Assembly (NCBI GenBank): GCA_016711605.1
Contig: JADJSS010000044.1
Coordinates: 158,884-222,883 of the forward strand
Direction: 5' to 3'
Source of the DNA: Saprospirales bacterium
GTDB lineage: Bacteria; Bacteroidota; Bacteroidia; Chitinophagales; JADIYW01
Length of the DNA stretch: 64,000 bases
Part shown: positions 3,478-55,360 of the stretch, in pieces
Position numbering within the stretch: position 1 is the stretch's first letter
How the letters are laid out: every line of letters starts with the position of its first letter
The notes under the pieces: model-generated
The model's input: only the letters and a program-made list of their open reading frames with translations
Databases searched by the model: none
Told to the model about the DNA's origin: nothing
Translations under genes and position numbers: made by a program

Positions 3478-4290
3478 CTAGATAAATGAATAACCAAAAA
3501 TACGATATAAATTTGCTCTAACTAGTTGCTTTGCAAAAAATAATTTGTCTTTTATAAAAGCAAAATTATTTTCATTTCCTTCGCCACGTAAATAAGAATG
3601 ACCACCTAATTTTGATTTATTTAATAACAATGTTTTTTGCTCAAAAGGTAAATACCAACCTTGCGGATAGCAATAACCTGGATGCAATTTTTTAGGTTCT
3701 ATATCTGAAAAGTATTTATTGATATGCGATTCATCGTGCCATTTTGCAACAATATTATTTGAAAAATCTATATCAATACAATTTTTTAACTGATGACATA
3801 ATTGTAAAAATTCTGAAGTACGGCCGCCAATCAAACCACCAGCAAAATAGTATGTTCCAGCTTTTTCTTGTATGAATGCAGTTGACTTAGAATTAGTTTC
3901 ATAATCAAAGTTTTTTCTCTTTTTATGATAGGCAACTGGATGCAATTGACCAGTTAAAAAATTATCTTTTTCAGTTGGTATGAGTTCGTTTTCTGAAATT
4001 GTTTTTATGAATGTATAATTGGCATTAAAGAAAAATAAAAAATCCATTTTTTTTAGTTCTTCTTCAATATTCAAAAACAAATGAAAACGCATCAGCGTAT
4101 CTTTTGGCCAACCTAATTTTTCCTGATAAATTTTATGAATATTATCTGTTGATTGAATAGTTTCACTATCCGTAAATACGAAATATTGTTTATCGGAATT
4201 TGGCAATAAAAATTGTTCAGCAGTTTTATAAAAATCGCTCCAAAACACATCGTATTTTCCTGTGCAGATATATAGAATTCCAATCTTCAT
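3478..4290 (-). CDS. Glycosyltransferase family 6 (histo-blood-group A/B-type alpha-1,3-Gal/GalNAc transferase homologue)
   Basis: 270 aa. The N-terminus 'MKIGILYICTGKYDVFW' and overall length resemble bacterial GT6 enzymes of the Bacteroides ovatus BoGT6a type (from memory). 'FFFNANYTF' carries the NxN that replaces the metazoan DxD in bacterial GT6. 'YYFAGGLIGG' corresponds to the donor-specificity loop. Confidence 0.75.
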   Translation of the reverse strand: MKIGILYICTGKYDVFWSDFYKTAEQFLLPNSDKQYFVFTDSETIQSTDNIHKIYQEKLGWPKDTLMRFHLFLNIEEELKKMDFLFFFNANYTFIKTISENELIPTEKDNFLTGQLHPVAYHKKRKNFDYETNSKSTAFIQEKAGTYYFAGGLIGGRTSEFLQLCHQLKNCIDIDFSNNIVAKWHDESHINKYFSDIEPKKLHPGYCYPQGWYLPFEQKTLLLNKSKLGGHSYLRGEGNENNFAFIKDKLFFAKQLVRANLYRIFGYSFI

Positions 4291-24520: not shown

Positions 24521-25999
24521 GTGAGTAAGAAGGTTTTAATAATTGGATCCGGTTTAGGAAGTTTAGCAACAGCATTGCGTTTAACAAAGCATGGTTATCA
24601 GGTTGAAATAGTTGAAAAACATCATCAAGCAGGTGGACGATTAAATCAATTAAAAAAAGATGGTTTTACATTTGATGTTGGTCCTTCATTTTTTAGTATG
24701 AGCTATGAATTTACAGAATTGTTTGAATATTGCAATATTCCAAATCCATTGCAAATGAACGAACTCAATCCTGTTTACACCGTTTATTTTGCAGACAAAA
24801 AAGATCCTTATTTTATTTACAAAGAACTCGATAAATTAGCACAGGAATTTTCAAAAATTGAAGAAAATTTTGAAGAAAAAGCAAAGAAATACTTAAAAAA
24901 AGCAGCAGAAATCTTTCACGACACAGAACATGTCATCATCAAAAGAAATTACGATAATTTATTTCAATATGCAGTTTCATTAGCAACGGTTCCAATGAAA
25001 CATTCGCCATTGTTGGTCCGTTCGATGTGGACACAATTAGAGCGTCATTTTGATTCGAATGATGTGAAAGTAATTTTTTCACTGGTTGCATTTTTTTTAG
25101 GTTCTACACCATTTGACACACCAGCCGTTTATAGTTTATTAAATTATACTGAACTACAACACGATGGCTATTGGAACATTAAAGGTGGTATGTATAAAAT
25201 AGTAGAAGAAATACAAAAAATACTTATTAATCGTGATGTAAAATTTCATTTTAATACCGAAATTGTAGATATTAAAACTAGTGAAAAAAATATAGATTAT
25301 TTTGTCGACCAAAATGGCAAACAATGGAATGCAGATATTTATGTTTGCAACTCTGATGCTGCTGCATTTCGCGGACAAATTTTAAAACGAAAAAAATTCT
25401 CTAAACCAAAGTTAGATAAGAAACATTGGACGTTGGCGCCATTTACAATTTATTTAGGTGTGAAAGGAAAAGTAAAAAATTTACATCATCATAATTATTT
25501 TTTAGGAACCAATTTTAAAGAATATGCAGATAATATTTTTAAACTTTCTGTCAATCCTGAAAAACCTTATTATTATGTAAACGTTTCTTCAAAATCTAAT
25601 GAAGAATGTGCACCTGAAGGTTGTGAAAATATATTTATACTTTGTCCAGTTCCTGACCGTCGTTACAAACATGACTGGAGCGACCGCGAAGAATTGGCTG
25701 CTAATATTTTAAAAGATTTATCCAAAAGAATTGATTTTGACTTGATAGAAAACACCGTTTCAAAAACAATTTATGCACCAGATGATTGGGAAAAAATGTT
25801 CAATTTGTATCAAGGTTCTGGCTTAGGATTGGCACATGGTTTGAATCAAGTTGCAGCTATGCGACCAAAAAATAAAGACGAAAAATTAGACAATTTATAT
25901 TACGTTGGCGCAAGCACTATTCCAGGAACTGGCTTGCCAATTGTAGTAATCGGATCAAAATTAGTAACAGAAAGAATTTTAGAAGATGGAAAAAGATAG
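24521..25999 (+). CDS. crtI: Phytoene desaturase
   Basis: 492 aa with 'VLIIGSGLGSLATALRLTKHGYQVEIVEKHHQAGGR' and 'FDVGPSFFSM'. It overlaps the crtB start by 14 nt. Confidence 0.8.
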   Translation: MSKKVLIIGSGLGSLATALRLTKHGYQVEIVEKHHQAGGRLNQLKKDGFTFDVGPSFFSMSYEFTELFEYCNIPNPLQMNELNPVYTVYFADKKDPYFIYKELDKLAQEFSKIEENFEEKAKKYLKKAAEIFHDTEHVIIKRNYDNLFQYAVSLATVPMKHSPLLVRSMWTQLERHFDSNDVKVIFSLVAFFLGSTPFDTPAVYSLLNYTELQHDGYWNIKGGMYKIVEEIQKILINRDVKFHFNTEIVDIKTSEKNIDYFVDQNGKQWNADIYVCNSDAAAFRGQILKRKKFSKPKLDKKHWTLAPFTIYLGVKGKVKNLHHHNYFLGTNFKEYADNIFKLSVNPEKPYYYVNVSSKSNEECAPEGCENIFILCPVPDRRYKHDWSDREELAANILKDLSKRIDFDLIENTVSKTIYAPDDWEKMFNLYQGSGLGLAHGLNQVAAMRPKNKDEKLDNLYYVGASTIPGTGLPIVVIGSKLVTERILEDGKR

Positions 26000-26837
26000 C
26001 ATCGCATTATATAATCAAACATGCATGCAATGCAGTGAATTAATTACCAAAAATTATTCCACTTCATTTTCATTAGGCATTCGTGTTTTTGATAAAGAAT
26101 TCAGAAATCCAATTTATGGAATTTATGGTTTTGTTCGCTTTGCTGATGAAATTGTAGATACATTTCATCAACACAACAAAAAAGAATTGCTGGATGATTT
26201 TCGCATGGAAACATTTAAAGCCATCGAACAAAAAATAAGTTTAAATCCAGCGTTACATAGTTTTCAATTAGTAGTAAATGAATTTGAAATTGAACATCAG
26301 TTAATCATTGATTTTTTAGATTCTATGGAAATGGATTTATATAAAACTACTTATGAAAGTAAAGAAATGTATAACAAATATATTTACGGTTCAGCTGAAG
26401 TGGTAGGTTTAATGTGCTTACAAATTTTCAGTAAACGTGATAAAAATTTGTTCGACCAATTAGCGCCTTATGCTAAAAGTTTAGGTGCTGCTTTTCAGAA
26501 AATAAATTTCTTACGCGATATGAACAGCGATAAAGAAGAACGAGGTCGTGTTTATTTTCCTGGAATTGATTTAACGCATTTTGATGAATCTACCAAACAA
26601 GAAATTTTAAAAGATATTCAACAAGATTTTGATGAAGCATTGATTGGTATTAAGTTGTTACCAAAAGGTGCTCGACGTGGTGTTTACTTAGCTTACGTTT
26701 ATTACTTAAATTTATTCAATAATATTCGTAAAGCATCCATTGAAAAAATATTACAAGAACGAATTCGTGTTAGCGATAAAAGAAAAGCGTATTTATTGAT
26801 GAATACAATGGTGAAAAATCAATTTAATTTGTTGTAA
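25986..26837 (+). CDS. crtB: Phytoene synthase
   Basis: 283 aa with 'YGFVRFADEIVD', 'YGSAEVVGLM' and 'LGAAFQKINFLRD' (squalene/phytoene synthase motifs). Confidence 0.85.
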   Translation: MEKDSIALYNQTCMQCSELITKNYSTSFSLGIRVFDKEFRNPIYGIYGFVRFADEIVDTFHQHNKKELLDDFRMETFKAIEQKISLNPALHSFQLVVNEFEIEHQLIIDFLDSMEMDLYKTTYESKEMYNKYIYGSAEVVGLMCLQIFSKRDKNLFDQLAPYAKSLGAAFQKINFLRDMNSDKEERGRVYFPGIDLTHFDESTKQEILKDIQQDFDEALIGIKLLPKGARRGVYLAYVYYLNLFNNIRKASIEKILQERIRVSDKRKAYLLMNTMVKNQFNLL

Positions 26838-26846
26838 TATTGAGTA

Positions 26847-27524
26847 TTGTCTGCAAAATACACATACTTATTTTTAATGCTCGGAACCATAGTTGGCCCA
26901 GTTTTATTGAGTTTCGATAAACGTGTTTCGTTTTACAAAAAATGGAAATTTTTACCAATTCCATTATTCATCACACTTCTTTATTTTGTAATTTGGGATT
27001 CCTATTTCACCAAAATTGGCATTTGGAATTTTAATGATAATTATATCATCGGTAAGAAAATGCTTGCGTTGCCAATCGAAGAATGGTTGTTTTTTATTTT
27101 TGTTCCTTTTGCATGTATTTTTATTTATGAATGCACTAATTTTTATATCAAAAAAGATATTTTACAAAACTACGCGTATAAAATAAATGGAATTATTTTG
27201 TTGATTATTTCTGTAGTTGCCATTTTAAATTTTCACAAAACCTATACTGCTTTTAATTTTATTTCTGCTGTCATTTTAATGGCTTACATTCAATTTATTT
27301 TGAAACCAACTTGGCTTGGAAGATTTTATATTGGTTATTTTATCTCACTAATTCCATTTTTTTTAGTGAATGGAATTTTAACCTATTTGCCAGTGGTAAC
27401 TTATAATAATGCAGAAAATTTAGCAATTCGAATTTTCACCATTCCAATAGAAGACACTATTTATTGTTTACTTTTATTATTGATGAATGTAACGATGTAT
27501 GAATGGCTAAAACAACGAAAGTAA
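26847..27524 (+). CDS. Lycopene cyclase domain protein (fused CrtYc/CrtYd type)
   Basis: 225 aa membrane protein with two similar halves ('PIEEWLFF', 'IPIEDTIY'). It lies directly after crtB. Confidence 0.7.
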   Translation: MSAKYTYLFLMLGTIVGPVLLSFDKRVSFYKKWKFLPIPLFITLLYFVIWDSYFTKIGIWNFNDNYIIGKKMLALPIEEWLFFIFVPFACIFIYECTNFYIKKDILQNYAYKINGIILLIISVVAILNFHKTYTAFNFISAVILMAYIQFILKPTWLGRFYIGYFISLIPFFLVNGILTYLPVVTYNNAENLAIRIFTIPIEDTIYCLLLLLMNVTMYEWLKQRK

Positions 27525-36496: not shown

Positions 36497-37243
36497 TTAA
36501 TTAATTCGTTCTAGTAATTCATCTTTTTTACTGCGAGCAACTGCTAATTCCATACCATTCGACATGACTACAAAAATGTTATTATCTTGTCTAATAATAT
36601 TTTCAATTTTATCTAAATTTATAATATTGGATTGATGGATTCTCAAGAAATTCTCGTTTATTTCTAAAATTGCTTCAATTTCTTTGAGTGTTTTTGCCAC
36701 CATTATTTTCTTATTTTTTGTGAGAAACAAATGAGAATAATTACTTTCGGCTGTGCAGCAAATCAACTCATCTGTTGCAATTATATGTGCACCATCAGAA
36801 TTAGAAATTAAAAAACGTTTGCCTTTTTTTTCTGAATTTTCTAATTGTTCTTTTAGTATTTCGTATTGCACAGATTTATAGTTTTTATCCACTATGTTCT
36901 TTGCTTTTTGCAAAGCAGTTTCAATTGTATTTTTGGTAACTGGTTTTAAAATATAATCTAACGCACTACATTCAATGGCGCGCAAACCAAATTGATTATA
37001 CGCAGTACAAAAAATAATTTCTGGTTTATGAACATCTAATTTTTGCACCAAATCAAAACCAGTACCATCAGGCATTTCGATATCTAGAAAAATCAAATCC
37101 GGTTTTTTAGAATTTACTAGTTCAATGCCAGATTTTACAGCATTCGCTTCACCAAGAATAGTTACATCAAGTTGAATTTTTTGAATGAGATAACTGATGA
37201 TATCTCGGTTGGTTTTTTCGTCGTCTATGATACAAACAGTCAT
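36497..37243 (-). CDS. LytTR-family response regulator
   Basis: 248 aa. It has a receiver domain ('DLIFLDIEMPDGTGFD') and a C-terminal LytTR DNA-binding domain ('FLRIHQSNIINLDKI'). Confidence 0.85.
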   Translation of the reverse strand: MTVCIIDDEKTNRDIISYLIQKIQLDVTILGEANAVKSGIELVNSKKPDLIFLDIEMPDGTGFDLVQKLDVHKPEIIFCTAYNQFGLRAIECSALDYILKPVTKNTIETALQKAKNIVDKNYKSVQYEILKEQLENSEKKGKRFLISNSDGAHIIATDELICCTAESNYSHLFLTKNKKIMVAKTLKEIEAILEINENFLRIHQSNIINLDKIENIIRQDNNIFVVMSNGMELAVARSKKDELLERIN

Positions 37244-37252
37244 GAATTTTTT

Positions 37253-39292
37253 TTATAAAACTGGTAAATGAATAATTATTTTGGTGCCTGTTGCTTTTTT
37301 TTGTTCATTATATAAATCAACAATTTGAAGTGAAGCTTTATGCACATCAGCATTTTGATTTAAGATATTAATTCTATCCTGAATAATATTGATAGCAATT
37401 GATTTATTATTTTTTGTTCGATAACGCAAATTATATTCTTCTGCTTTTTTTCTGCCAATTCCATTGTCTGTAATTTCACAATGCACCATATTATTTATAA
37501 AACTAAAATAAACCAGCACATAACCTTTGTAACTAATGAATTTGAACGCGTGCCAAATTACATTTTCTAAAAAAGGTTGTATCATCATAATTGGAATTTT
37601 TACAAAATCGGTTGAAAGTCCAGGTTCAATTTTGATGTCAAAATCAAATAAATGATTGTTGCGTTCTTGTTCTAATTTCAAATAAGTAGTTAATAATAAA
37701 ATTTCATTGTCTAGCGAAATATCTGGTTCTGATGAGTTTTCGAGCACCATTCTAATTAACGATGCGAAATTATGCAACATAGAAGATGCTTTTTCATTAT
37801 CGTTAGTAACGATAGAATGCTGAATTGAATTCATGCAATTAAAAATAAAATGCGGATTCATTTGTGATGACAAAGCTTGCATTTGTATTTCTACTTTTTC
37901 TTTCTCAAAAGATTGGATTAATGCAAGACGTTTTTGATCTTCTATTAAGAGATTTTGTTGTTCAATTTCAGCAACACGTTCTTTTACTTTTTCTTCTAAG
38001 ATAGTATTTTCATTTTTGATGAACTCTTCGCTTTGCTGTAGTTCAAATATCAACTGATCTTTTAGTTTTTCAGATGCTAAAAATGAATCTTTAATTCTTA
38101 TAATTAAAGCGACTGAAAATATTATAAGCTCGAGTGCAACACCTACGTATAAGATATTTACATCCACATAAAAATCTTTAATAGGAAAATTTATTTTTTG
38201 CAAGGTAGATATTGCTGTAAAAACAGTGTAAACAATGCTTCCTGAAAAAATAATTCTCTGAAATAAATTTTTGTTTACAATATTATACGTTGCAATCAAC
38301 GTAACTATACTAAAAAAGAAAATTGGAATTCTATACAAACTATATATCAATGGTTCGTTATAAAATGAAATTGAAAATAAATGACCTAAAACAATAACAC
38401 CAACATAAACCAATGAAAAATATTTTAGTGCCATGGTAGAATAATATATAACTTTTTCATTCTTCGTAATTCGAAATGCCTGTTGGTAAAAAATGCTGTA
38501 AAAAAATATCATCAATCCTTTAGTAGATTCATCGACAGCACTGTTACCAATGACGTTAAACATTTTTATGTTTTTTGTAAAAATGTATTGTGCCATGTAT
38601 AAAATCTGACAAAAAGTAGTTAACAGATAAAAAGTATAGTACAGATAAATTTTATCTTTTAAATAATAAAATGCCAATAAATAAAATATGAACATAATAA
38701 GCACCATACCGAGTATAAACAAATACTGTAATGTAAATCCAAAATTTCTTTTGTTTGTATTCGTATTATATGTTGGAAAACTAAAAACATTTGAATAACA
38801 GTAAATACTATTTTTATTTACAAAATAATCTTTAAATGAAATTGGTTGATGAATCAAATAAGTATGCAATGTGCTTTTCGGCAGGATAGTAATTTCAAAA
38901 AATTGTTTATTAGATTTTATATAATCAGATTTTTTTAGAACTATTTTATTTGGTAAAATAGTATCAGCTTCACCAACATTATTGTATTTATTTAGAGTTG
39001 AATAAAATTTTAAATGTATAATTGTATCTGAAGTATTGACATAATTAACTACTGTAATAATTTTTTTATTCAACCGATAAGAAGTAGCGTTGTAAGGTTT
39101 TTCAATAATGAATGAATCATTTTCTATTGTTCCTATATAAGATTGAAAATGGTCATATATGGTATCTAATTCTGTATGAATACTTTGAAGTTGCTGTACT
39201 TGATATATGTTTGTACTAATATTTGCTGATACATTTGCAGTAATAAAGCAAGTAATAATTATAGCAACAATATATTTTTCGATGCGTATCAT
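37253..39292 (-). CDS. Sensor histidine kinase (7TMR-DISM-type sensor plus LytS-type His_kinase/HATPase)
   Basis: 679 aa. It has a signal/periplasmic domain, about 7 TM helices, a coiled coil, an H-box 'QMNPHFIFNCMNSI' and an ATPase 'ITDNGIG'. Confidence 0.8.
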   Translation of the reverse strand: MIRIEKYIVAIIITCFITANVSANISTNIYQVQQLQSIHTELDTIYDHFQSYIGTIENDSFIIEKPYNATSYRLNKKIITVVNYVNTSDTIIHLKFYSTLNKYNNVGEADTILPNKIVLKKSDYIKSNKQFFEITILPKSTLHTYLIHQPISFKDYFVNKNSIYCYSNVFSFPTYNTNTNKRNFGFTLQYLFILGMVLIMFIFYLLAFYYLKDKIYLYYTFYLLTTFCQILYMAQYIFTKNIKMFNVIGNSAVDESTKGLMIFFYSIFYQQAFRITKNEKVIYYSTMALKYFSLVYVGVIVLGHLFSISFYNEPLIYSLYRIPIFFFSIVTLIATYNIVNKNLFQRIIFSGSIVYTVFTAISTLQKINFPIKDFYVDVNILYVGVALELIIFSVALIIRIKDSFLASEKLKDQLIFELQQSEEFIKNENTILEEKVKERVAEIEQQNLLIEDQKRLALIQSFEKEKVEIQMQALSSQMNPHFIFNCMNSIQHSIVTNDNEKASSMLHNFASLIRMVLENSSEPDISLDNEILLLTTYLKLEQERNNHLFDFDIKIEPGLSTDFVKIPIMMIQPFLENVIWHAFKFISYKGYVLVYFSFINNMVHCEITDNGIGRKKAEEYNLRYRTKNNKSIAINIIQDRINILNQNADVHKASLQIVDLYNEQKKATGTKIIIHLPVL

Positions 39293-39400
39293 TTAATTTA
39301 AAAATACAATATTATTAATGAAAAAAAATTTGGTTCATTTTTCATGCACCAAAGTTTTTATCAACTTAAAAGTATTATTTTATACTATAAAACAAATGAA

Positions 39401-39435
39401 CCATTGAGTATTCTACTGTTTTATTGATTATTTGG
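39401..39435 (-). promoter_or_regulatory. Direct-repeat element (variant copy) upstream of the histidine kinase gene; candidate LytTR binding site
   Basis: The minus strand reads CCAAATAATCAATAAAACAGTAGAATACTCAATGG. It lies about 108 nt before the start at 39292 and overlaps the last codons of 39421..39954. Confidence 0.55.
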
Positions 39436-39954
39436 CACAAATGCATTTGGATTGTCTAACGTTTTTACGACTCGATCTAATGCAATTAAAATATCTGGTT
39501 TTTTGTTGTTGATTAATTCTAAAGTATAAATATCAAATTCAATTTCTTCGCCATTTTTGATATAAAACGTAGTGATTCCTTCGCTTCTTGAATTATTATT
39601 ATTGTATATAATTTTTCCTTTAAATGTATAATCTAAAATTTGGTGTAATGGAATTTCTATCGGATCATTTTTATCTATAAAAATTGAGATAAACGCTTCG
39701 CCAATAAATGGAATAATGCCAAGCCAATTAAACCGATATTTAAAGAAAGCAAGTCGCCGATTCGTTAAATAAAGTACACCACTGGTGTATTCTTTTTTTT
39801 CATTTCTTCTTAATAATTTTACTGCATCATTTACATCAACAATTTCTTCATTTCCGACTTTTTCAAAAACAAATTTGTCACGTACTTTTCCACCAATAAA
39901 TAGAAATAAAAATGTTGGTATTAAAATTAAAGCTGTAATAATTAAGAATGCCAT
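39421..39954 (-). CDS. Membrane-anchored protein with a PH/GRAM-like domain
   Basis: 177 aa with an N-terminal TM helix and a 'GVLYLTNRRLAFFKY' GRAM/bacterial-PH-like strand. Confidence 0.45.
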   Translation of the reverse strand: MAFLIITALILIPTFLFLFIGGKVRDKFVFEKVGNEEIVDVNDAVKLLRRNEKKEYTSGVLYLTNRRLAFFKYRFNWLGIIPFIGEAFISIFIDKNDPIEIPLHQILDYTFKGKIIYNNNNSRSEGITTFYIKNGEEIEFDIYTLELINNKKPDILIALDRVVKTLDNPNAFVPNNQ

Positions 39955-39980
39955 AGTTTTAAAAGTTTGATTATTAATAA

Positions 39981-40544
39981 TTATTTTTCACCAGCATTTA
40001 TTGGTGTATCAGCAATTTTATGAAGTGCATATTCTTTAATTTCCAATGTTTCTCCATTAGTAATATTAATTTTCATCCATCCATATTGATAACCACCTTG
40101 AGAATTTTGTTTACGAAAACCAACATAAAAATCACCAATATCAGAATAACCATAATCGGTTCCATTTGATAATAAATGACGAAGGAAAATATGACCATTT
40201 TTCCAAATATTTAAATTTGGTTGTATACTTGATCCTTTGTTAATGTTCTTTATTACAAAGGCATCACTTACCATCTCTACCAAAAACTGGTACTTATTAT
40301 CATATACTCTCAAATCTATTGTGTGTTGATTTGGATCATCGTCAGTATGAGTGACAACAAACTGAAAATCCTGAACTATTTCGCCATCAATATTTACATC
40401 TACAGAATTGAAAAGTGTAGGATAAACAGCTGCCACCTTAATATTTAAATTCACTTCATTAATATCAGGATTATTAGTTTCTTTTTCTTTTTTGCATGCT
40501 ATTATTGATAATAATAATATCGCAACTAGTTGTAATCTTTTCAT
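39981..40544 (-). CDS. Lipoprotein of unknown function
   Basis: 187 aa with lipobox 'LLLSIIAC'. The C-terminus 'GYQYGWMKINITNGETLEIKEYALHKIADTPINAGEK' is shared with the next gene. Confidence 0.55.
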   Translation of the reverse strand: MKRLQLVAILLLSIIACKKEKETNNPDINEVNLNIKVAAVYPTLFNSVDVNIDGEIVQDFQFVVTHTDDDPNQHTIDLRVYDNKYQFLVEMVSDAFVIKNINKGSSIQPNLNIWKNGHIFLRHLLSNGTDYGYSDIGDFYVGFRKQNSQGGYQYGWMKINITNGETLEIKEYALHKIADTPINAGEK

Positions 40545-40565
40545 TTTATTTTTTTTTAAAGACTA

Positions 40566-41132
40566 TTATTTATCACCTGCTTTAATTGCAGTTTCTGGAA
40601 TTGTTTGGACTGCATATTCTATAATGGTTAACTTATGACCACCAGTTACATTTACTTTCATCCAACCGTAATGGAAATCACCACCAATATCTACTCTAAA
40701 GCCAATCAATTTATCGCCTTGTTCGTTGATTCCAACAGGATAGCCACTAACACCATCTATATTTAAATAGAAAGTAACTATGGAATTCCATGTTCCAGAT
40801 GCTGAATTTATTGATGCATTTTCAGCAAATATTTTAATTTTATTGCTTACAGGCGATTGTGCTTCTGTTATAAATTCATAATATGGAAACCCATTAATGC
40901 CTACATCTGAATTATCTTTATCTAAACTTGGTAAGGTGCTGAATATATTAAAATCATCGGTGCCGTCATCATCTAAATCAATGATTTTATTATTAGAATT
41001 TCCACTGCTGTCGATAGTTATATTTACGATTCTATCATCGATATTTGGATCGTTGGATTCTGTAGTTTCTTTTTTACATGCAAATGCGCTGATAATTATT
41101 ACGCAAATTGCAATTGATTTAATTGTTTTCAT
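40566..41132 (-). CDS. Lipoprotein, paralogue of 39981..40544
   Basis: The real start is probably 'MKTIKSIAICVIIISAFAC' at 41132; the track ORF extends to 41324. The C-terminus reads 'DFHYGWMKVNVTGGHKLTIIEYAVQTIPETAIKAGDK'. Confidence 0.55.
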   Translation of the reverse strand: MKTIKSIAICVIIISAFACKKETTESNDPNIDDRIVNITIDSSGNSNNKIIDLDDDGTDDFNIFSTLPSLDKDNSDVGINGFPYYEFITEAQSPVSNKIKIFAENASINSASGTWNSIVTFYLNIDGVSGYPVGINEQGDKLIGFRVDIGGDFHYGWMKVNVTGGHKLTIIEYAVQTIPETAIKAGDK

Positions 41133-41157
41133 AATTTTATTTTTGTTAGTTAAAAAT

Positions 41158-41662
41158 TTATCTAAAAGGTGAAAAAGACTCTTCGGTTTTTGGTAATGGT
41201 AATGACTGAGCAATAAATAAAACGAACGGAAATTTATCTGCATGATAGGTGGCTCTTGCTTCACCGCTGGTGAATTTAAACTCAACAGATAAATAGGTAT
41301 CATCTGGTGCATTTGGATGCGCATGATGCATAATACTTTTTAGATTTTCCCAAACAAATTTTTTATTATTCTTTAAAGTTAAACCATCTTTATCTATTAA
41401 AGTTATGAGATTATTTTTTGAATTTTCTATTATAAAATAAATTAAAAACAACATTGCAGATAAAACAGCACCAAGCAATACATAATATTTTCCATTTTCT
41501 TCAGCTTTAAATCCAGCGAAAACAATACTAATTCCAAGCGTCAAAAAGAAGAACAACAAAAACAAACCAGCAATCTTTTTGTGCCATAGTTAATGTATGA
41601 TTGTAATGCAAAATAACTGGTTGCAATATAATTTGTTGTGCTTTTTGTTTGGTGCTGTTCAT
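41158..41662 (-). pseudogene. Two-TM membrane protein with a PH-like C-terminal domain; one frame break near the 5' end
   Basis: The ATG at 41662 ('MNSTKQKAQQIILQPV...') runs into ORF 41158..41565 after a 1-nt change in an A-run around 41570-41585. Confidence 0.4.
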
Positions 41663-41669
41663 GTTTGAA

Positions 41670-42292
41670 CTATTTTAATTTCACCGTAAGTGTATTGTAA
41701 TTTCTGAAAAGCTCATTTAAAGTTGGTTCATTTTCTGGTAAAGCCATAGTAAGTGGTGTGTTGAATGGATTCTTTAATCCACAACCTTTACAGTTATCAG
41801 GTATTGGATTACACGAACCACAACAAACTATTTTATTATCTTGACCTATACTGCAACAAACACCTGTTTGACCACATTCATTCCAACCATTGTCATTCTT
41901 TTTAAAAGCTACGTTAGTTAAATTAACATCAAAAATTGACTATTTCCGCCATTCATTTTTTTAGAAGCATTTAACGATATGGTATCCACTGCTGCAATTA
42001 TTTTGGTTATTTGCATCACTTTTGCCGACTCATTGACAGCATAATCTAAACGATAAAGTTTTGTAATAACGCTTTCATTTGGTCCATCTGAAAATGTTAA
42101 GCCATATTGAACACTATCAATAAATCCAGCTAATAAAGCATTGTTATTTACAGTAAATGGTAATGTAATTCCATTTGGATCTTTTATTGAAAGTTCATAG
42201 TATTTGGTTTCAGCATCATTACTTGTTTTGTTTTTACAAGAAGTTATTAAGGTGAATGCCAAAATAAGTGTTAGAATTGTTTGTGTTTTCAT
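41670..42292 (-). pseudogene. Lipoprotein with a cysteine-rich C-terminal module; one frame break
   Basis: ORF 41918..42292 has lipobox 'LITSC'. One extra base in the A5 run at 41931-41935 continues it as '..NSQFFDVNLTNVAFKKNDNGWNECGQTGVCCSIGQDNKIVCCGSCNPIPDNCKGCGLKNPF...TVKLK', with the stop at 41670. Confidence 0.5.
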
Positions 42293-42313
42293 AGTGTTGT
42301 TTTAGTTGGATAT

Positions 42314-43330
42314 TTATTGTTTTACTACATAAATTGAATTTGCAAGAGATTCTAATGATGATGAATCGTTAAGTGTTAACGATTGTGCATTTAGCCAATA
42401 TCTTGCTTTTTTCTTGCCAGTTGCTATTTTTTCGTAACCTGCAATATAAACATCTGAACTATTTACGGCTATGCCATCTGCGGATGATTCTGTTAGAAAC
42501 GGACTTGATAAATTAATTAAAGAATCATTTATCAAACAAACTGCTTTATTTTGACTTACACCTGAAATATAACGAGTATTGTTATCTACAACAATATCTT
42601 TCATAGTTGCATTAATAAAATAGGTTTGCGCTGTACCATTTATACGACATACTGTTGTGTTGTTGAATGTTCCCACCGTATAAATATCAGTTCCAATAAC
42701 TTTTATTCCATTTAATACACTTGTACTATTTCCAATTCTTGTTTGAACAATGTTATTTTTCCAATTTTTTTCAAATACATTCAATGCTGTATCTGCTTGT
42801 TTTTCGTAGCCAACTACATACACATTTCCATTGCTGATATCCATGTCATTTGGAAATGCTTTATTTTCTAAAGATGTGATATTTGTACCTGTGCCATTTT
42901 GCCAAATCTTCATCACTTCCTGACCACCATAATACTCTGTGCCTGCAACATATACAATATTATTTACGACAATTATTTTTTGAGCAAAGCCACTTTTTAT
43001 CACAGCGGGATTTTGCAATGGCAGCAAATTCAGTATGCCATTTTTCCAGTAGACAGGTGCACTCGTTCTTCCATAAGAAATATATCCTGAAACATAAACA
43101 TCATTACCTGAAACATAAATATCTGTTGCAGCAGAATTTCTACTATTATTTTGGAGCATTACAAGTTGATTGTTTTTCCAATATACCGCTTGTATGTAAA
43201 TTGCAGAATCTGGATCATAAGTCAAGTAACCAGAAATATATACATCTGCAGGTACTTGAGCTGGTTCTGTTTTTTTGCAAGAAAAAATTGTTGCAACAAC
43301 AACTAAAAAAAAGATCTGTACTTTTTTCAT
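42314..43330 (-). CDS. Lipoprotein with about 7 'VYVxGY...YWKNG' propeller-like repeats
   Basis: 338 aa with lipobox 'ATIFSC'. It shows repeated 'DVY(I/V)SGY', 'VYWKNG' and 'IWQNG'. Confidence 0.55.
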   Translation of the reverse strand: MKKVQIFFLVVVATIFSCKKTEPAQVPADVYISGYLTYDPDSAIYIQAVYWKNNQLVMLQNNSRNSAATDIYVSGNDVYVSGYISYGRTSAPVYWKNGILNLLPLQNPAVIKSGFAQKIIVVNNIVYVAGTEYYGGQEVMKIWQNGTGTNITSLENKAFPNDMDISNGNVYVVGYEKQADTALNVFEKNWKNNIVQTRIGNSTSVLNGIKVIGTDIYTVGTFNNTTVCRINGTAQTYFINATMKDIVVDNNTRYISGVSQNKAVCLINDSLINLSSPFLTESSADGIAVNSSDVYIAGYEKIATGKKKARYWLNAQSLTLNDSSSLESLANSIYVVKQ

Positions 43331-43349
43331 AAAATTTATTTTTTTTAAA

Positions 43350-44374
43350 TTATTCTACGACAAAAATCCCATTTGCTCTTGCTCGGTGTTCATAAATAAG
43401 ATCCGTAGTAAGATTGTATAATTTACCATTTTTCCAATAGCTAGCTAACGATGGTTGATCTACATCCCATTCATTTCCTGCAATATATACATCACTACCA
43501 AGTAAAAACATATCATTTGTTTTCATTTGTACATTTGTTGGATTTTCTAACGGATATTCTACACCGTTTTTCCAATAAACTATAATATCATCACCGCTTG
43601 CATTACTTCGACCACCACAAGCATACATATCATTACCAACAAATGAAATTTTATTAGCATAAGATTCATCATTAATTATTGAATTTGATGTATTATTAAG
43701 CCAATAAGTAGCTTTATTTATACCTGTTCCAATCTGTAAATAACCAACAGTAAAAACAGAATCGCCTTTAACAAAAATATCTTCTGCACTTGCATAATCA
43801 GTTGATACACTCGTGACAAATGCCATATCATTTTTCCAGTACATGGCAACTTTATGTCCATTGGCTGCATATTTATAACCACTAACATAAACATCATTAT
43901 TTTTTACAAAAATAGAAGTTGCAGTTGCACTGAAAGTACCATCTGTAAGATTATTAATTACACCATTTTCCAATAAACTGCCTTTGAATTAACACCTTCT
44001 GATGTACTTCCTGATATATATACATTATTGTTTACTACTGTAATTTTATCTGCATATGCTCTAAAAGTGCCATCGGTTAAATATGTTGCAACACCATTTT
44101 TCCAGTATTTAACAATAAGCTTAGTACTTTCATAAGAAACTCCTAATACATACACATCATTACCAACCACGAAAATAGATATTGCTAATTCATCATGAGT
44201 ACCATCTGATAATGTTACAGCGATACCATTTTTCCAGTATTTTGCTACGGCATGTCCATTGTCATTGTATTGATAACCTGCAATGTAAACATCAGGTGTT
44301 TTTGCATTTTCTTTTTTGCAAGAAATAAATGCTATAAATGCAATCAATAAAATAAAAAGAGATTTCGTTTTCAT
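43350..44374 (-). pseudogene. Paralogous 'YWKNG' repeat lipoprotein; one frame break
   Basis: ORFs 43958..44374 and 43350..43973 join as '..KAVYWKNGVINNLTDGT..' with one extra base in the T4 run at 43966-43969. Lipobox is 'AFISC'. Confidence 0.55.
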
Positions 44375-44375
44375 A

Positions 44376-45262
44376 CTAATTGATTTTATAATTTAAACTA
44401 CACGATTTTATATTGCCACTAGCGGTATTGTAGTTATAAACCTGATTTGTTTTTAGTTTTTTGGTTTCAAAATTTAATTGTCCGATGAAGTCGTGAAAAA
44501 TCAAATCGATATCTTGCATTAATAATTCAACTCTGTCATTTTCTGAAATAGTAAACGTTATATTTTTAGAATTTGGACCCACTGCAAACATGTAAGTATC
44601 GTTTACATTTTTTTTCAAACAGAAATATTTCCAACCAAAACATTCACGCCAACATCAGGTGCATCTGTTCGAAAGAAAGCAATGTCCCAAACATTTCCTT
44701 TTGCATTCTTTTCTGTTGATTCAATATAATCGATGTTTAAGGTAAACGTGTTTGTTTTGGGTTTTGAAAATTCTATATTTTCTTTAATTAATTTTTGTTC
44801 ATGCTTGTTGCCAGTTCCATCGGTTCCTGATAATAATGTTTTAATCGAAATAGTATGATTTCCTGGAGATAATTTGAGTGCTGCATACGGAATAAAAAGT
44901 GATTTCTTTTTATCAAATTTAGATGCTTGCATTTCATTTGAAAGAAAATCAAATCCAAATGTTGCTTCGCCATTTGCGTTTGCAGTGGATTGATAACCTA
45001 AAGCTGGCTCAACTGCTTTGTTGTTTTCATACAAAATTGCACTGATAGAAAAAGATGCTTTTGATAAAATAGTATCGTTATGGTTTTCTTCTTCTAACGG
45101 CAAAAAATTATAACGATAGGTAATATTAATTCCTTTTACACCATCAGATGTGTAATCTGTTTCTACATTAACAACTGTGCTAATTATTTTAAAATTACTA
45201 TTTGCGAAAGTGGTGAAATTTAAACCAAGCGATATAAATAATATTGATAGTATTTTTTTCAT
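44376..45262 (-). pseudogene. Exported protein: N-terminal beta-sandwich-like domain plus a tentative C2-like C-terminal domain; a frame break at an 8-nt homopolymer
   Basis: ORFs 44615..45262 and 44376..44618 meet at the T8 run 44618-44625. The joined sequence reads '..APDVGVNVLVGNISV.KKNVNDTYMFAVGPNSKNITFTISENDRVELLMQDIDLIFHDFIGQLNF', which is reminiscent of a C2 domain. Confidence 0.45.
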
Positions 45263-45318
45263 TTTTTCATTTTTAAGTACAACAACTAAACTACTACATT
45301 AATTTCATTTAACAACAA

Positions 45319-45353
45319 TCATTGAGTATTCAGCAGTTTTATTGAGTATTTGG
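45319..45353 (-). promoter_or_regulatory. Direct-repeat element upstream of 44376..45262; candidate LytTR binding site
   Basis: The minus strand reads CCAAATACTCAATAAAACTGCTGAATACTCAATGA, about 56 nt before the ATG at 45262. A 'TAGTTTAG' (near the Bacteroidota -7 TAnnTTTG) lies between them. Confidence 0.55.
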
Positions 45354-45366
45354 AAAGTTATAAGTT

Positions 45367-46500
45367 TTAGAAAACAAAAACAGCGCTGAAGTAATTCCTG
45401 TTATTGGTTGTTCCACTACCTAATTTCCCAAATTCATTATTACCAGTTGTCCATACTGTATCACTTGCGCTTTTCAATATGGAATAATTATAATTAGTTG
45501 AGATATCGGAAATATTATTTTTAATAGGTTTAAAGGTAAATACATTTGCATTATTGCTATCGCCTAACTGACCTTCCGTATTTTTGCCTGTACCATATAA
45601 AACATTAGAAAAATCAAGATAAAATGAAGTGCTTTGTTTGGTGCTGATAAATCGAACATTATTTGCCATTTTAGTAAATGTTCTTAACTCGCCATTGTTT
45701 CCATTTCCAATTTGTCCATTTAAGTTACTACCAGCAACCCATAAACTATGATCACCTCTAATAATCATGCTGTGTGCATTTCCTGCCGAAACTGCAATAA
45801 CACTATCCAAGATGGTAACAAATGATTTTGAACCACTTCTTAAACCATTACCAAATTGACCAAATCCGTTATAACCAGACGCATATAAAAAACCAGATCT
45901 ATCGATAATTAAAGTATGTAAAATACCAGCAGAAACTGCTTTTATATTTTCTGCAACTTTTAAAAATTGATACGTTTGTAACGTATTGCCAGTGCCTAAT
46001 TGTCCATTGTCATTAAATCCGGTTGCCCAAAGTGAGAAATCTGATTTTATAATAAACGAAAAATCGTTGCTGCAACTAATACTGATTACACTGTCTGCTG
46101 CTTTTGTAAACGTATTAATGTTTGAATGAATAGAATCGCCAAGTCCTAACTCACCATTTAAGTTATTGCCACTTACCCAAAGCGTTTTATCTTTCTTAAT
46201 TATAAACGTATGACCATATCCACCTGATACTTGAATGACATCATCTGCCACTTTAATAAATGTTAGACTACCGATATACGTACTGTTTCCGAATTGTCCG
46301 TCATTGTTTGATCCGGAAACCCAAAGTGTATTATCATCTTTTAAAATGTAACTGGTTGCAAATCCAGCTTCAACATTATTATTTGTAAATGTTTCGTTTA
46401 TTGATGGTATGTCTTTTTTACAACTAAATATTGTGCAAATAAAAATTATAACTAAAATTTGACTTACTATTTTCATGTGTATGATTTTATTGAGTGACAA
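45367..46500 (-). CDS. RCC1-repeat (seven-bladed propeller) lipoprotein
   Basis: 377 aa with lipobox 'CTIFSC'. Seven repeats: 'GSNNDGQFGN', 'GNNLNGELGLGD', 'GFNDNGQLGTGN', 'GYNGFGQFGNG', 'GSNLNGQIGNGN', 'GKNTEGQLGDSN' and 'GNNEFGKLGSGT'. An alternative start lies at 46476. Confidence 0.8.
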   Translation of the reverse strand: MSLNKIIHMKIVSQILVIIFICTIFSCKKDIPSINETFTNNNVEAGFATSYILKDDNTLWVSGSNNDGQFGNSTYIGSLTFIKVADDVIQVSGGYGHTFIIKKDKTLWVSGNNLNGELGLGDSIHSNINTFTKAADSVISISCSNDFSFIIKSDFSLWATGFNDNGQLGTGNTLQTYQFLKVAENIKAVSAGILHTLIIDRSGFLYASGYNGFGQFGNGLRSGSKSFVTILDSVIAVSAGNAHSMIIRGDHSLWVAGSNLNGQIGNGNNGELRTFTKMANNVRFISTKQSTSFYLDFSNVLYGTGKNTEGQLGDSNNANVFTFKPIKNNISDISTNYNYSILKSASDTVWTTGNNEFGKLGSGTTNNRNYFSAVFVF

Positions 46501-46551
46501 TATTGATTTTAATAACTACTAACTTAACAAAACAATTCAAAAAAAGCCGAA

Positions 46552-46586
46552 CCATTGAGTATTCAGCAGTTTTATTGAGTATTTGG
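46552..46586 (-). promoter_or_regulatory. Direct-repeat element upstream of the RCC1 gene; candidate LytTR binding site
   Basis: The minus strand reads CCAAATACTCAATAAAACTGCTGAATACTCAATGG, 50-75 nt before the RCC1 start. Confidence 0.55.
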
Positions 46587-46590
46587 TAAT

Positions 46591-47040
46591 TTATTTTATG
46601 TTTATAGTCTTTTTATACGTGTTCATCTTTACACAATCAAAGCTGAGTTTGTTTGCATATTTGCCATATACTTTTGTGTTTATCACAATTTTGTGTTCGC
46701 CATTTTCTAAATCAATGTCTTTGTATTTTATAAAATAGGAAATAGTTTTTGCTGGTTTTTCATACAAAGAATATGGATCTAAAGTTTCGGACTTAGTAAC
46801 TAATTTTTCATTAGTATTTAATAAATTGCTAAAGAAGCCACTTTTACCATTATTTAATTCTATAGATGTAGTTACATAAATGTTTATGGAATCAATATTT
46901 TTTGGCTTTTTTAGGTTTGAATAATCTAAATTATATTCCAAATAAATTCCAGATTTACCTTTAATTACAGTATCTAAAGCTATTTTAAAAGTTTGTTTAG
47001 AATTGCAATTCGGCTCTGTAGAAAACGAAACTGAAAACAT
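46591..47040 (-). CDS. Exported protein related to the N-terminal domain of 44376..45262
   Basis: 149 aa. 'FKIALDTVIKGKSGIYLEYNLDY...ENGEHKIVINTKVYGK' parallels 'FKIISTVVNV...SPGNHTISIKTLLSG'. The in-frame upstream stretch 'KKSILLICLAFFMFSVSFS' suggests the true start is near 47076, which would need a 1-nt change. Confidence 0.45.
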   Translation of the reverse strand: MFSVSFSTEPNCNSKQTFKIALDTVIKGKSGIYLEYNLDYSNLKKPKNIDSINIYVTTSIELNNGKSGFFSNLLNTNEKLVTKSETLDPYSLYEKPAKTISYFIKYKDIDLENGEHKIVINTKVYGKYANKLSFDCVKMNTYKKTINIK

Positions 47041-47215
47041 AAAGAATGCTAAGCAAATTAATAAGATTGATTTCTTAGCATAGCTGTAGTTTTTAAATAG
47101 TGGTGTTGGTGAATTTCGATTTCATGTTGTTTTGTTTTATGGTTATTAGTTATTTTATCGCTGCTGTTTTATGTATAACTTTTAAAACGAAAAAATAATT
47201 CCAAAGTATTATCAG

Positions 47216-47250
47216 CAATTGAGTATTCAGCAGTTTTATTGAGTATTTGG
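47216..47250 (-). promoter_or_regulatory. Direct-repeat element upstream of 46591..47040; candidate LytTR binding site
   Basis: The minus strand reads CCAAATACTCAATAAAACTGCTGAATACTCAATTG. This is the first copy in the direction of transcription. Confidence 0.55.
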
Positions 47251-48468: not shown

Positions 48469-49723
48469 TTATATCAAGAAATTAAACAACATTGGATTGT
48501 CGTTGAGTTGCACAAAATCAACTTTGTATTTTTCATACGATTAATGAGCGGCTCGTAATCTTCCTTATTTTTTAATTCAATACCAACTAAAGCTGGTCCG
48601 CTTTCTTTGCTGTTTTTCTTGGTGTATTCAAACAAGGTAATATCTTCGTTTGGTGATAATACTTTAGATACAAACTGCTTCAACGCACCGGCACGTTGCG
48701 GAAATTTGATAATAAAGAAATGTTTCAAGCCTTCAAAAATCAATGAACGCTCTTTAATATCTGGCATGCGTTCTATATCGTTGTTGCCACCACTGATAAC
48801 ACAAACAACTATTTTACCTTTTATTTTTTCTTTGTAATAATCCAATGCAGCAACAGATAGAGCACCTGCTGGTTCCAGTACAATTGCATCAGAATTATAC
48901 AATTGCATAATTTTTGTACAAATTCTTCCTTCAGGAATCAAAACCACATCTTCTAAATAATTTTTACAAATCTGAAATGGAATTTGTCCAACTTGTTTTA
49001 CAGCAGCACCGTCAACAAAATTGTCGATTTTATCTAATGTAATAATTTTATTTTTTTCGATAGAAACTTTCATGGCTGGCGCACCCTAATGGTTCTACAC
49101 CAACAATTTTTGTATTTGGTGAAAACTCTTTAAAATAGGTAATTAAACCTGCACTCAATCCACCACCACCGATAGGCACAAACAAATAATCAATTTTCTT
49201 TTTACCAATTTGTTCTAAAATTTCAATACCAACCGTACCTTGTCCTTCTACAATTAATTTATGATCAAAAGGTGGTACAAATATTTTATTGTGGTGATGT
49301 ACATATTTCAACGCGGCACTTTTAGCGTCGTCATAGGTATCGCCAGACAATACAATTTCAATATAATTTTTACCAACTCTTCTTACTGCTTCTACTTTCT
49401 GTTTTGGTGTTGGAGTTGGCATAAACACGATGCCTTTTATTTTTAATAAATTACAAGAATAAGCAAAACCTTGTGCGTGGTTGCCTGCAGAAGAACAAAC
49501 AACACCTTGCTTTTTTTCTGCAGCAGAAAGCTGAGAAATGAAATTATATGCGCCACGAATTTTGTAAGAACGAACTGCCTGCAAATCTTCTCTTTTAAGA
49601 AATACTTTTGCACCTGTTTCGTCAGAAAGAATTTGATTTAATTTTAAAGGTGTTACTTCACTGATACCTTCTAGATTTTTTGGCTTGGATAATTCCTTTT
49701 ACGGATGGCTGTGTGGTTGACAT
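48469..49723 (-). pseudogene. ilvA: Threonine ammonia-lyase (threonine dehydratase) with three frame breaks
   Basis: ORFs 49048..49584 ('SYKIRGAYN' PLP-lysine motif, 'PIGGGGLSAG') and 48474..49073, plus an N-terminal piece from the ATG at 49723. Breaks lie at the T6 run 49676-49681, the C3 run 49084-49086 and the T5 run 48529-48533. The corrected C-terminus reads '..VQLNDNPMLFNFLI'. Confidence 0.8.
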
Positions 49724-53742: not shown

Positions 53743-55360
53743 TTAAGCAGGAAATAAATATTCTTTTCCATCAATCATAAATCGATGATCCATGATGCGT
53801 GGCCACATTGGTTTTGCAGGCAATTCATTTTCCCAAATTTTCAAATCATCTTGTAACTCTTTTACTTTTTCAGGCATTTGAAAGAATAGATTATTTTTTT
53901 CATTTTTATCCTTTTTTAAGTTGTATAATTCTATCCATTTATCTCTTGAACTATAAATTAATTTGTAATCACCTTTTCTAATTGCATGTATATGATCTGC
54001 ACGCCAAAATAATTTATCATGTGGTGCATTGGTGTTTTCATTAGTTAAAAATGGAATTAAATTTATTCCATCATACACTCTGTCTGTTGGTAATTTTGCG
54101 TTACTGATGTTGGCTGCTGTTGCAAAAATATCTAGTGCAATAATTGGAAAATCATATGTTGTATTTTCTGGCAAATGATTTTTCCATTTTAAAATAAAAG
54201 GTACATTAATTCCACCTTCAAATTGTGTTATTTTTCCACCTTTTAATGGAGTTGCATTTGTTATTTTAGTATACGATGCAGGTCCATTATCACTTAAAAA
54301 AACAACTAATGTATTATCATCGATATTTGCATCTTTTAATTTTTTGGTTAATGGCACCAATGGCATCATCTAAAGAACGAATGATACCACGATACACTGC
54401 TTTTCCTTTATCTTGTATTGTTTTATACTCTTCGTTATAAAATTCTTCTTTTGCCTGATATGGTTCGTGCGGTGCAGTAAATGGTATGTATAAAAAGAAA
54501 GGTTTATCTTTATTTTTTCAATAAATTGCAAAGATCTATCGCGAATAGCATCTGTGAAATATTGTTTTTCACTTTTAATTTTCTTGCCATTTTCATAAAT
54601 CATAGCAACATCTTTACGAGCCATTTGCCATTGGTATTTTGCAACAAAACTTTTTCCTGCATAATTTACGATATTGGGTGTTTTCACTTTCTCAGCATAC
54701 AATGTAAATCCGCTATAACAACCATATTGATAATCAAAACCAAAATTAGTTGGTGTATTTAATTTAGTATTTGTACCTAAATGCCATTTTCCAATAATTG
54801 CTGTTTGATAATTATATTTTTAAGCAATTCTGCCAAGGTAATTTCTGTAGGTGGAATTCCTTGTTTTGCAATTTCCCATTCATGAGGATATTGTGGTTTA
54901 CTTGCAACAACCCAAGCACTATCTTTTGTGCAGTTTTTTCCTGCTAAATACTCAATTATATTCGATGGATAATTGTCATTATCAATAGTTTCAAAACCAC
55001 AACGTTGTTGGTATCTTCCTGTTAAAATACCACATCTCGATTGTGCACAAATAGGTGATGTTACATAACCTTCTTTACATTTTACACCTTCTTTTGCTAA
55101 TTGATCAATGTTTGGTGTTTGGAAATCTTTACTATTAAAACAACTAACATCATTCAAGCCTAAATCATCTGCAACAATTACAATAATGTTTGGAGCAGTT
55201 AAGGTTGGCTGAACTTTTTCATTTAAAAATTGTTTTTTAGATGCTAATAAATTTTTGTCCCATCTTATTTTCCATTCTTTAGTTCCAGTTGTTAATGGAT
55301 AACACGACACAAAAAAGATACCTACTAGTAAAGATACAATAATAGCAATTTTATACTTTT
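53743..55360 (-). pseudogene. Arylsulfatase (S1 sulfatase family), frame-broken
   Basis: ORFs 54777..55310 ('IIVIVADDLG', 'SPICAQSRCGILTGRY'), 54370..54702 and 53743..54369 ('VVFLSDNGP', 'EGGINVPF'). 'GKWHLG' lies in a shifted frame near 54770. A lipoprotein-like 'KKYKIAIIVSLLVGIFFVSC' lies upstream in frame with no obvious ATG. Confidence 0.75.

Follow-up and report, generated by a model that had tools for sequence, protein, structure and literature searches.

A 33-nt direct-repeat element as a probable LytTR operator of a surface-protein island beside a 7TMR-DISM/LytTR two-component system in a Saprospirales bacterium

The 64,000-nt stretch analyzed here (the window; positions 158,884 to 222,883 of contig JADJSS010000044.1 from a Saprospirales bacterium) carries on its minus strand a two-component system and, upstream of its kinase, an 8-kb island of genes on the same strand that have signal peptides or lipoboxes; a 33-nt direct-repeat element occurs there four times. 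The response regulator (36497..37243), which is the proposed binder of the element, contains the Pfam domains Response_reg and LytTR, and the sensor histidine kinase (37253..39292), whose orthologues adjoin the element in all loci, contains 7TMR-DISM_7TM and His_kinase (PF06580). The receiver aspartate of the regulator lies in the motif FLDIEMPD. A first-pass annotation of this DNA had placed a LytTR two-component system beside the elements, and the Pfam assignments agree. The island encodes an RCC1-repeat lipoprotein, two propeller-like "YWKNG" lipoproteins, small lipoproteins, and a PH/GLUE-like membrane protein; searches of Pfam and NCBIfam with the target-protein families gave nothing past RCC1, Por_Secre_tail, and a weak PH/GLUE-like match.

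A pattern search of the window found the 33-mer CCAAATACTCAATAAAACTGCTGAATACTCAAT, for which no chance occurrence is expected (100 shuffles), at 47250-47218 (copy 1), 46586-46554 (copy 2), and 45353-45321 (copy 3), all three being identical. At the 34th position, copies 2 and 3 have G, whereas copy 1 has a T, an extra base that is missing from other assemblies of the same organism. Copy 4, CCAAATAATCAATAAAACAGTAGAATACTCAAT, lies at 39435-39403, where it overlaps the stop codon of 39421..39954; it has four substitutions, one in the left half-site and three in the spacer, and a counterpart in the related locus L121 and in the same-species assemblies L161-L166. Each of the four copies contains AATA(C/A)TCAAT twice, with a period of 20 nt from start to start, and both half-sites of copy 1 are AATACTCAAT. 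Sequence identity between the copies ends abruptly at the element borders. All four are found within 8 kb of the kinase in a single orientation, each directly 3' of the stop codon of the preceding minus-strand gene. Neither pattern searches nor an element-plus-promoter profile revealed a fifth copy in the window: the four copies score 40-57 bits (57 bits for copy 2) vs 10.5 bits for the next best position. The first-pass annotation had described three minus-strand copies sharing at least 32 nt with a different tail in copy 1, a fourth copy with four substitutions, the decamer twice per copy 20 nt apart, and no further copies; all of this was reproduced, apart from end coordinates that were a trivial one to two bases too long.

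Measured from the element end, copy 3 precedes ATG 45262 by 58 nt. It is the start of the first gene (295-aa family) in an eight-gene operon (39421..45262; 295, 341, 338, 207, 167, 188, 187, and 177 aa in intact assemblies), whose products are mostly lipoproteins or secreted and of which several genes are frameshifted in the window. Between copy 4 and the kinase start at 39292 there are 110 nt. Copy 2 lies before the RCC1-repeat lipoprotein gene (45367..46476, 369 aa; modeled from open reading frames (ORFs), Pfam, and other assemblies), 77 nt from its likely start, ATG 46476, and 53 nt from the TTG picked by the ORF list. Copy 1 lies 177 nt from 47040, which is not the true start of its gene because the window has frameshifts there; the real start, ATG 47125, is 92 nt away and belongs to a 178-aa gene with a signal peptide (46591..47125) that is frameshifted in the window. 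The distances first estimated for 45262 and the kinase hold, but the one to 47040 referred to the wrong start codon.

Compared with metagenome contigs of the same organism, the window contains single-base indels, mostly in homopolymer runs, at positions 40549, 41576, 41930, 43965, 44615, 47077, 47113, 47147, and 47217, so that 215 + 80 aa replace a 295-aa protein and 138 + 207 aa replace one of 341 aa. These gene breaks are probably assembly errors rather than pseudogenes, as other assemblies that encode the identical regulator have intact genes. With the indels corrected, the island consists of ten intact genes of 178, 369, 295, 341, 338, 207, 167, 252, 187, and 177 aa; the same gene models are present in independent assemblies with the identical regulator, the 252-aa gene being called as 188 aa in other assemblies. 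Further breaks were seen in ilvA near 49060 (split into 48474..49073 and 49048..49584) and in a sulfatase gene (53743..55310, in two ORFs). The island also holds tandem paralogues, namely two small lipoproteins with the C-terminal motif GWMKINI...EYA...AG.K (39980-40097 and 40565-40682, a 118-nt repeat with 70% identity) and the two propeller-like lipoproteins of ~340 aa with repeated YWKNG motifs (42314-44374); neither pair has a family assignment.

Related loci were fetched using regulator homologues of 86, 63, 61, 62, 62, 63, 57, 52, 50, and 45% identity. Synteny on the far side of the regulator (malic enzyme, DEAD helicase, or GldC-like/ABC-F) indicates that many of them are orthologous, and in every one the kinase lies directly upstream of the regulator. 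On the upstream side of the kinase, the relatives have a variable island of secreted proteins, including type IX secretion system (T9SS) cargo of 1000-1140 aa, tail-fibre-like proteins, and the small families of the window. Using relaxed searches, the element or its clade variant ACTACTCATT was found in 12/12 distinct orthologous loci (the window and 11 lineages with regulators 50-86% identical), and strain variants with an identical regulator protein carry it as well. It invariably has the orientation of the gene that follows it, usually one for a secreted protein in the variable island, and in 14 of 18 instances the start codon is 52-63 nt away.

Locus by locus, the element was located before the kinase in L121 (position 819), as copy 4 is, and at position 1 of L122, where the contig breaks within it. 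It is found at position 5067 in L127, at 4479 in L130/L131, at 2363 in L153, with the kinase 3.2 kb downstream, and at 4406 in L126, where the spacer is 11 nt. Two copies are present in L128 (positions 1688 and 4587, of unequal spacer length) and in L132 (3683 and 4567, with reciprocal differences). In L156 (3358) both half-sites are AATACTCAAT and the spacer has one change, L157 (3950) reads ACTACTCATT-N11-ACCACTCATT, and L159 (4154) contains three exact tandem 21-nt units, TACCAACTACTCATTTGTTTC, spanning 4148-4210, which suggests that regulator assemblies larger than a dimer could bind. In L158, the 45% homologue, the targets are downstream of the regulator, the first of them being preceded by ACTCAAT and ACTCATT at a distance of 22 nt from each other. 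The period is thus 22 nt in L158, 21 nt in L126, L128-1688, L130, L145, L157, and L159, and 20 nt in the window and most loci. In the more distant loci L126, L130, L145, and L147, the half-sites outlast the spacer. The LytTR domains of these lineages' regulators are merely 40-68% identical, yet the element is kept; to judge from such comparisons, the retention of a 30-nt non-coding element at this degree of regulator divergence implies selection.

Conservation also bears on which protein would bind the element. Repeat geometry alone does not name the protein, and AraC-type proteins use direct repeats ~21 bp apart beside the -35 region, so a regulator encoded elsewhere, either another LytTR paralogue or one of the AraC type, might be the binder and the adjacent system linked for some other reason. 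We consider this unlikely. The flanking genes vary among loci (ilvA, TetR/efflux, EF-Tu-like, YchF), but the kinase/regulator pair is constant and is the sole gene set that stays with the element as the flanks change; no other regulator is conserved nearby, TetR being found in L128 and L157 only, with none within 15 kb in the window. Furthermore, half-site variants follow the regulator clade: the CATT variant is restricted to L157 and L159, whose regulators form their own clade, 60% identical mutually vs 38-53% to the rest.

A promoter-like box stands at a fixed distance from the element. In 13 of the 19 unique instances, TAnnTTT[AG] starts 27 nt after the proximal half-site (28 nt for copy 4 and L121), whereas all other offsets together gave six matches; in the remaining six instances, offset 27 has, by eye, a TAnnTT-like box and reads TAGTTTAG, TAAGTTAG, TAAGTTAC, or, in copy 1, TCGTTTTA (TCnnTT). 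Counted by eye, the 27-nt spacing is also seen in the divergent L157, L158, and L159 and at two of the three L164 sites, the third having its best box at offset 21. In the window, the candidate sigma-A -7 boxes are TAAGTTAG for copy 2 (46519..46526; the same in L145 and L128-1688), TAGTTTAG for copy 3 (45286..45293; identical in L156), and TACTTTTA for copy 4 (39367..39374, 28 nt past the element), and the weak candidate TCGTTTTA for copy 1 (47183..47190) makes its promoter the least canonical of the four. A sigma-70 promoter scanner was uninformative for Bacteroidota promoters. In Flavobacterium, the sigma-A box TAnnTTTG is located at -12 to -5, and 5' untranslated regions have a median length of 24 nt (PMC9723704). 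Given this box position and the spacing observed here, the element would span about -72 to -40 of the predicted promoter; a TTG or TTTG lies 3-6 nt after the element, the place expected for the -33 motif, and the predicted leaders are 12-22 nt long. On the minus strand, transcription would then begin near 46514, 45281, and 39362 for copies 2, 3, and 4. If the boxes are working promoters, the position of the element is that expected for an activator that touches RNA polymerase.

A second kind of box is found close to the kinase. In the window, TATTTTTA (39299..39306) is located 6 nt before the kinase ATG, and a TAnnTTTA box, usually TGTATTTTTAA, precedes the kinase start by 5-6 nt in nearly all lineages (L121-L132, L153, L156, L157, and L164). 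It is possibly a basal sigma-A promoter from which a kinase mRNA without a leader would be made, and together with copy 4 it would constitute a two-promoter design, basal plus induced.

The predicted promoter position also bears on whether the element acts in RNA, as a terminator of the upstream gene or as a structure in the 5' leader. Copy 2 and its downstream flank can form a 7-bp stem followed by a T-run: the right half of the copy pairs with the flank as GCTGAAT...GGTTCGGC, followed by T7 (46546-46567, minus strand), which resembles a terminator for the 178-aa gene, and operator and terminator would then overlap at this copy only. However, the hairpin needs a flank unique to copy 2, so a terminator is not found at every copy; the four copies fold no better than shuffled sequences (z -1.6 to +1.0), Rfam gave no match, and, by the -7 box, the element is upstream of the predicted transcription start. 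An RNA-level role is hardly to be credited on these grounds.

Low-depth wastewater metatranscriptome contigs (Logan), which are too shallow to place 5' ends, cover the island at 40.0-46.5 kb and thus show that it is transcribed there. The kinase and regulator are hardly covered by them, and 46.8-47.6 kb, including the copy 1 gene, has no coverage. The end of one contig, at 46482, falls within the predicted RCC1 transcript; another contig, X25 (45021-45331, from a run flagged "RNA?"), extends 10 nt into copy 3. The expression data are compatible with an operator but are not diagnostic.

Copy number is low. It was assessed in the window, 1.29 Mb of fetched DNA, a 183.6-kb contig, and metagenome records. 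A strict-pattern scan of 241 million metagenome records gave 23 stretches; ~12 of these are genuine elements, the others being heptamer satellites or fortuitous matches. All true elements with enough downstream sequence show a promoter-like region, most of them followed at 52-63 nt by a gene with a signal peptide, and the one with sufficient flank, L153, has the kinase downstream. On the 183.6-kb contig from which L128 comes, two copies were found and no more, and both belong to the island. In a profile scan of the 1.29 Mb, a background enriched for the half-site by the first half-site scan, the weakest true site scored 33 bits vs 18 bits for the best background match. A contig scan with 9-11 nt gaps also matches heptamer microsatellites at the 11-nt gap (10 + 11 = 21 = 3 x 7), and, among the matches listed, those with gap 10, in L055, L060, L067, L093, and L116, look like chance. 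Such microsatellites, (AATACTC)n and (AATAATC)n, occur widely in metagenome-assembled genomes (MAGs) of Bacteroidota, Planctomycetota, Ignavibacteria, and others (e.g., L009 1801-1915, L068, L077, and L109).

Three copies that are 100% identical in flanks that are not could belong to a dispersed repeat of the repetitive extragenic palindromic (REP) or miniature inverted-repeat transposable element (MITE) type, or be neutral remnants of a local duplication. We judge either to be extremely improbable. There are four copies in 64 kb, all in an 8-kb island and on one strand, and ~12 in the 241 million records; the repeats are direct only, with no palindrome or terminal inverted repeats. Dispersal irrespective of gene orientation, which had been named in the first pass as the observation that would speak against an operator, was looked for in the sequences listed above, and in these the element is instead low-copy, context-specific, and not REP/MITE-like. 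Its retention, partly with the spacer, in lineages whose regulators are 50-65% identical is incompatible with neutrality.

When the two halves of the element are aligned (TaCCaAATACTCAAT vs TgCTgAATACTCAAT), the repeat unit proves to be longer than 10 nt, with an extended unit TnCnnAATACTCAAT; L159 repeats the full TACCAACTACTCATT. The true spacer is reduced to an AAAAC A-tract, and the longer unit together with this A-tract mostly accounts for the conserved spacer. Spacer conservation had been attributed to either recent duplication or a second function; a second function is not needed, but the identity of the three window copies is probably due to recent duplication or gene conversion within the island. 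Such perfect identity is not general, as copy 1 has one base changed (...CTGCAG...) in other assemblies of the same organism.

The island itself is modular. L164, L167, and L168 have an identical regulator and an extra six-gene block of 5.3 kb that separates the 177-aa gene from the kinase (L164 2587-7837), which includes a Fib_succ_major protein and an RCC1-like 371-aa protein and holds three element copies, before a 322-aa gene, a 191-aa gene, and the kinase. In L161 the RCC1 module is replaced. By this pattern, every transcription unit entering the island has its own predicted operator. Deletions between repeats were also sought in the DNA contig layout, and the few joints seen, with 21-25 nt anchors, were discarded as untrustworthy, as contigs break at the 33-nt repeat (assembler k = 31).

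The copies might alternatively mark the boundaries of gene cassettes, as sites of site-specific or homologous recombination, since they are intergenic, right behind stop codons, island content varies among identical-regulator strains, the 5.3-kb block is bracketed by copies, and contigs from related populations cease to match at the borders of the element. We nevertheless regard this as very unlikely to be their function. No integrase or transposase is conserved nearby, the Phage_integrase gene 5 kb beyond the regulator in L128 not being conserved, and neither a recombinase nor a further regulator was found among 18 more window ORFs (24.5-35.0 and 47.7-64.0 kb). The element has no inverted repeat or hairpin and hence is not attC-like, and the fixed 27-nt box spacing and the 52-63 nt distance to the start codon would be unexpected of a boundary. 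Many positions distinguish the bracketing copies of L164 from copy 4 of the window, and no simple recent crossover can be seen. Occasional homologous recombination between copies can of course be compatible with operator function.

LytTR sites consist of two 9-11 nt repeats separated by 11-13 nt, have no common consensus, and involve a contribution from flanking bases (PMC4847170), and AgrA binds paired repeats just upstream of P2 and P3 (PMC4227749). The element, whose direct repeats measure 10-15 nt overall, conforms to this class: it has at least two direct repeats of ~9-11 nt, two in all orthologous loci and three in L159; its period is at the short edge of two helical turns, a 9-nt half-site giving an 11-12 nt spacer; it abuts the -35/-33 region of the predicted promoter; and a cognate regulator and kinase lie beside the targets, a linkage seen in 12/12 orthologous loci.

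The closest likeness is to the Escherichia coli YehT/BtsR operator of yjiY (btsT), which also has direct repeats with a ~21-nt period before a single activated promoter and a LytS-family (PF06580) kinase partner. The YehT probe ACCGCTTA-N13-ACCACTCA (PMC4847170) has an ACnnCTCA core in common with AATACTCA, ACTACTCA, and ACCACTCA here, and also with the L157 half-site ACCACTCATT, which has the same 21-nt period. The systems differ in that the kinase here has a 7TMR-DISM sensor, whereas BtsS responds to pyruvate; the targets here are surface or secreted proteins rather than a transporter, with multiple promoters per regulon; and the promoter is of the Bacteroidota -33/-7 type, with a 20-nt period in the window. 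At agr P2 and P3 of Staphylococcus aureus, an AgrA LytTR dimer likewise occupies paired direct repeats just upstream of the promoter and autoregulates its operon (PMC4227749), but the AgrA half-site is unrelated in sequence, and agr is a peptide quorum-sensing system with the AgrC kinase. The operators of ComE, PlnC/PlnD, and YpdB share the 9-11 nt repeat, the 11-13 nt spacer, and the importance of flanking DNA (PMC4847170) but have another consensus, belong to Firmicutes or Proteobacteria hosts, and have no link to T9SS or a lipoprotein island. A search of PDB sequences with the LytTR domain gave marginal matches only (3d6w, E 0.03; AgrA, E ~0.3), and contact residues are therefore not transferable.

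We thus favor, with a probability of roughly 75%, the explanation that the 33-nt element is an upstream activating LytTR operator through which the adjacent 7TMR-DISM/LytTR system would activate promoters of surface and secreted proteins. This supports the interpretation first drawn from the sequence, whose predictions held wherever they could be checked by computation. The 7TMR-DISM kinase would sense a signal and phosphorylate the adjacent regulator, a dimer of which would bind on one face of the helix to the two half-sites, which are direct repeats of the extended unit TnCnnAATACTCAAT with a core A(A/C)TACT(C/A)AAT and a period of 20-21 nt. As the proximal half-site ends 2-3 nt before the putative TTG/TTTG -33 motif and 27 nt before the TAnnTTTG-type -7 box, the dimer would recruit or stabilize RNA polymerase, and the modular island of lipoprotein, secreted, and T9SS-cargo genes would be switched on. 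In this organism, the fourth site would also boost the kinase/regulator operon.

Several points weigh against this explanation. The window period is 20 nt, whereas the classical value is 21. The -7 box of copy 1 is a poor one and its gene lacks RNA coverage, and the extension of X25 into copy 3 suggests either RCC1 read-through or DNA carry-over. Bacteroidota genomes usually encode many LytTR regulators, and it is from conserved linkage that the adjacent one is taken to be the probable binder. Finally, the kinase-front copy is not kept in most orthologous loci: a dedicated one is found in the window species, its closest relative L121, and the L164 strain variant, with a decayed relic in L156. 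Other loci have no separate kinase site, the kinase lying 22-110 nt behind the last target gene, and any autoregulation outside those lineages would therefore be by read-through.

A bolder version, which we put forward tentatively and consider doubtful, is that the element is a portable promoter module. Genes for lipoproteins, RCC1/propeller proteins, tail-fibre-like proteins, and T9SS cargo would join or leave the regulon of one sensor by acquiring or losing a near-identical operator-plus-promoter copy, and recombination between operators would drive strain turnover; the locus would then provide the first operator/promoter grammar for a 7TMR-DISM/LytTR system, and the core shared with BtsR would be an ancient LytTR code.

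The window flanks of the island are housekeeping genes (malic enzyme, DEAD helicase, DUF389, and threonine dehydratase). A carotenoid cluster at 24521-27524 (phytoene desaturase-like, phytoene synthase, and lycopene cyclase) is unrelated to the element. The locus was found in activated-sludge and wastewater metagenome runs, and the closest relatives of the regulator are annotated as Chitinophagales MAGs.

Few two-component systems are as common in Bacteroidota as those that pair a LytTR regulator with a 7TMR-DISM or LytS-type kinase, and in the literature searched, no operator or regulon of a Bacteroidota 7TMR-DISM/LytTR or LytS-type/LytTR system was described. The locus described here would be a complete unit, with a sensor, a regulator, an operator consensus, a spacing rule to a -33/-7 promoter, and a target set. 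The predicted operator belongs to the known LytTR direct-repeat class and leaves the view of how LytTR regulators act unchanged; the added value is an exact consensus and spacing rule for a Bacteroidota system. That consensus, tACCAAaTACTCAAT, a 10-11 nt spacer, and AAtACTmAAT, followed after 27 nt by TAnnTTTG, would allow regulons to be predicted in related genomes. With variable surface and secreted proteins as its targets, the system probably serves to remodel the surface of the cell upon an external cue, which, in an uncultured Chitinophagales lineage of activated sludge, would be relevant to floc and biofilm ecology in wastewater.

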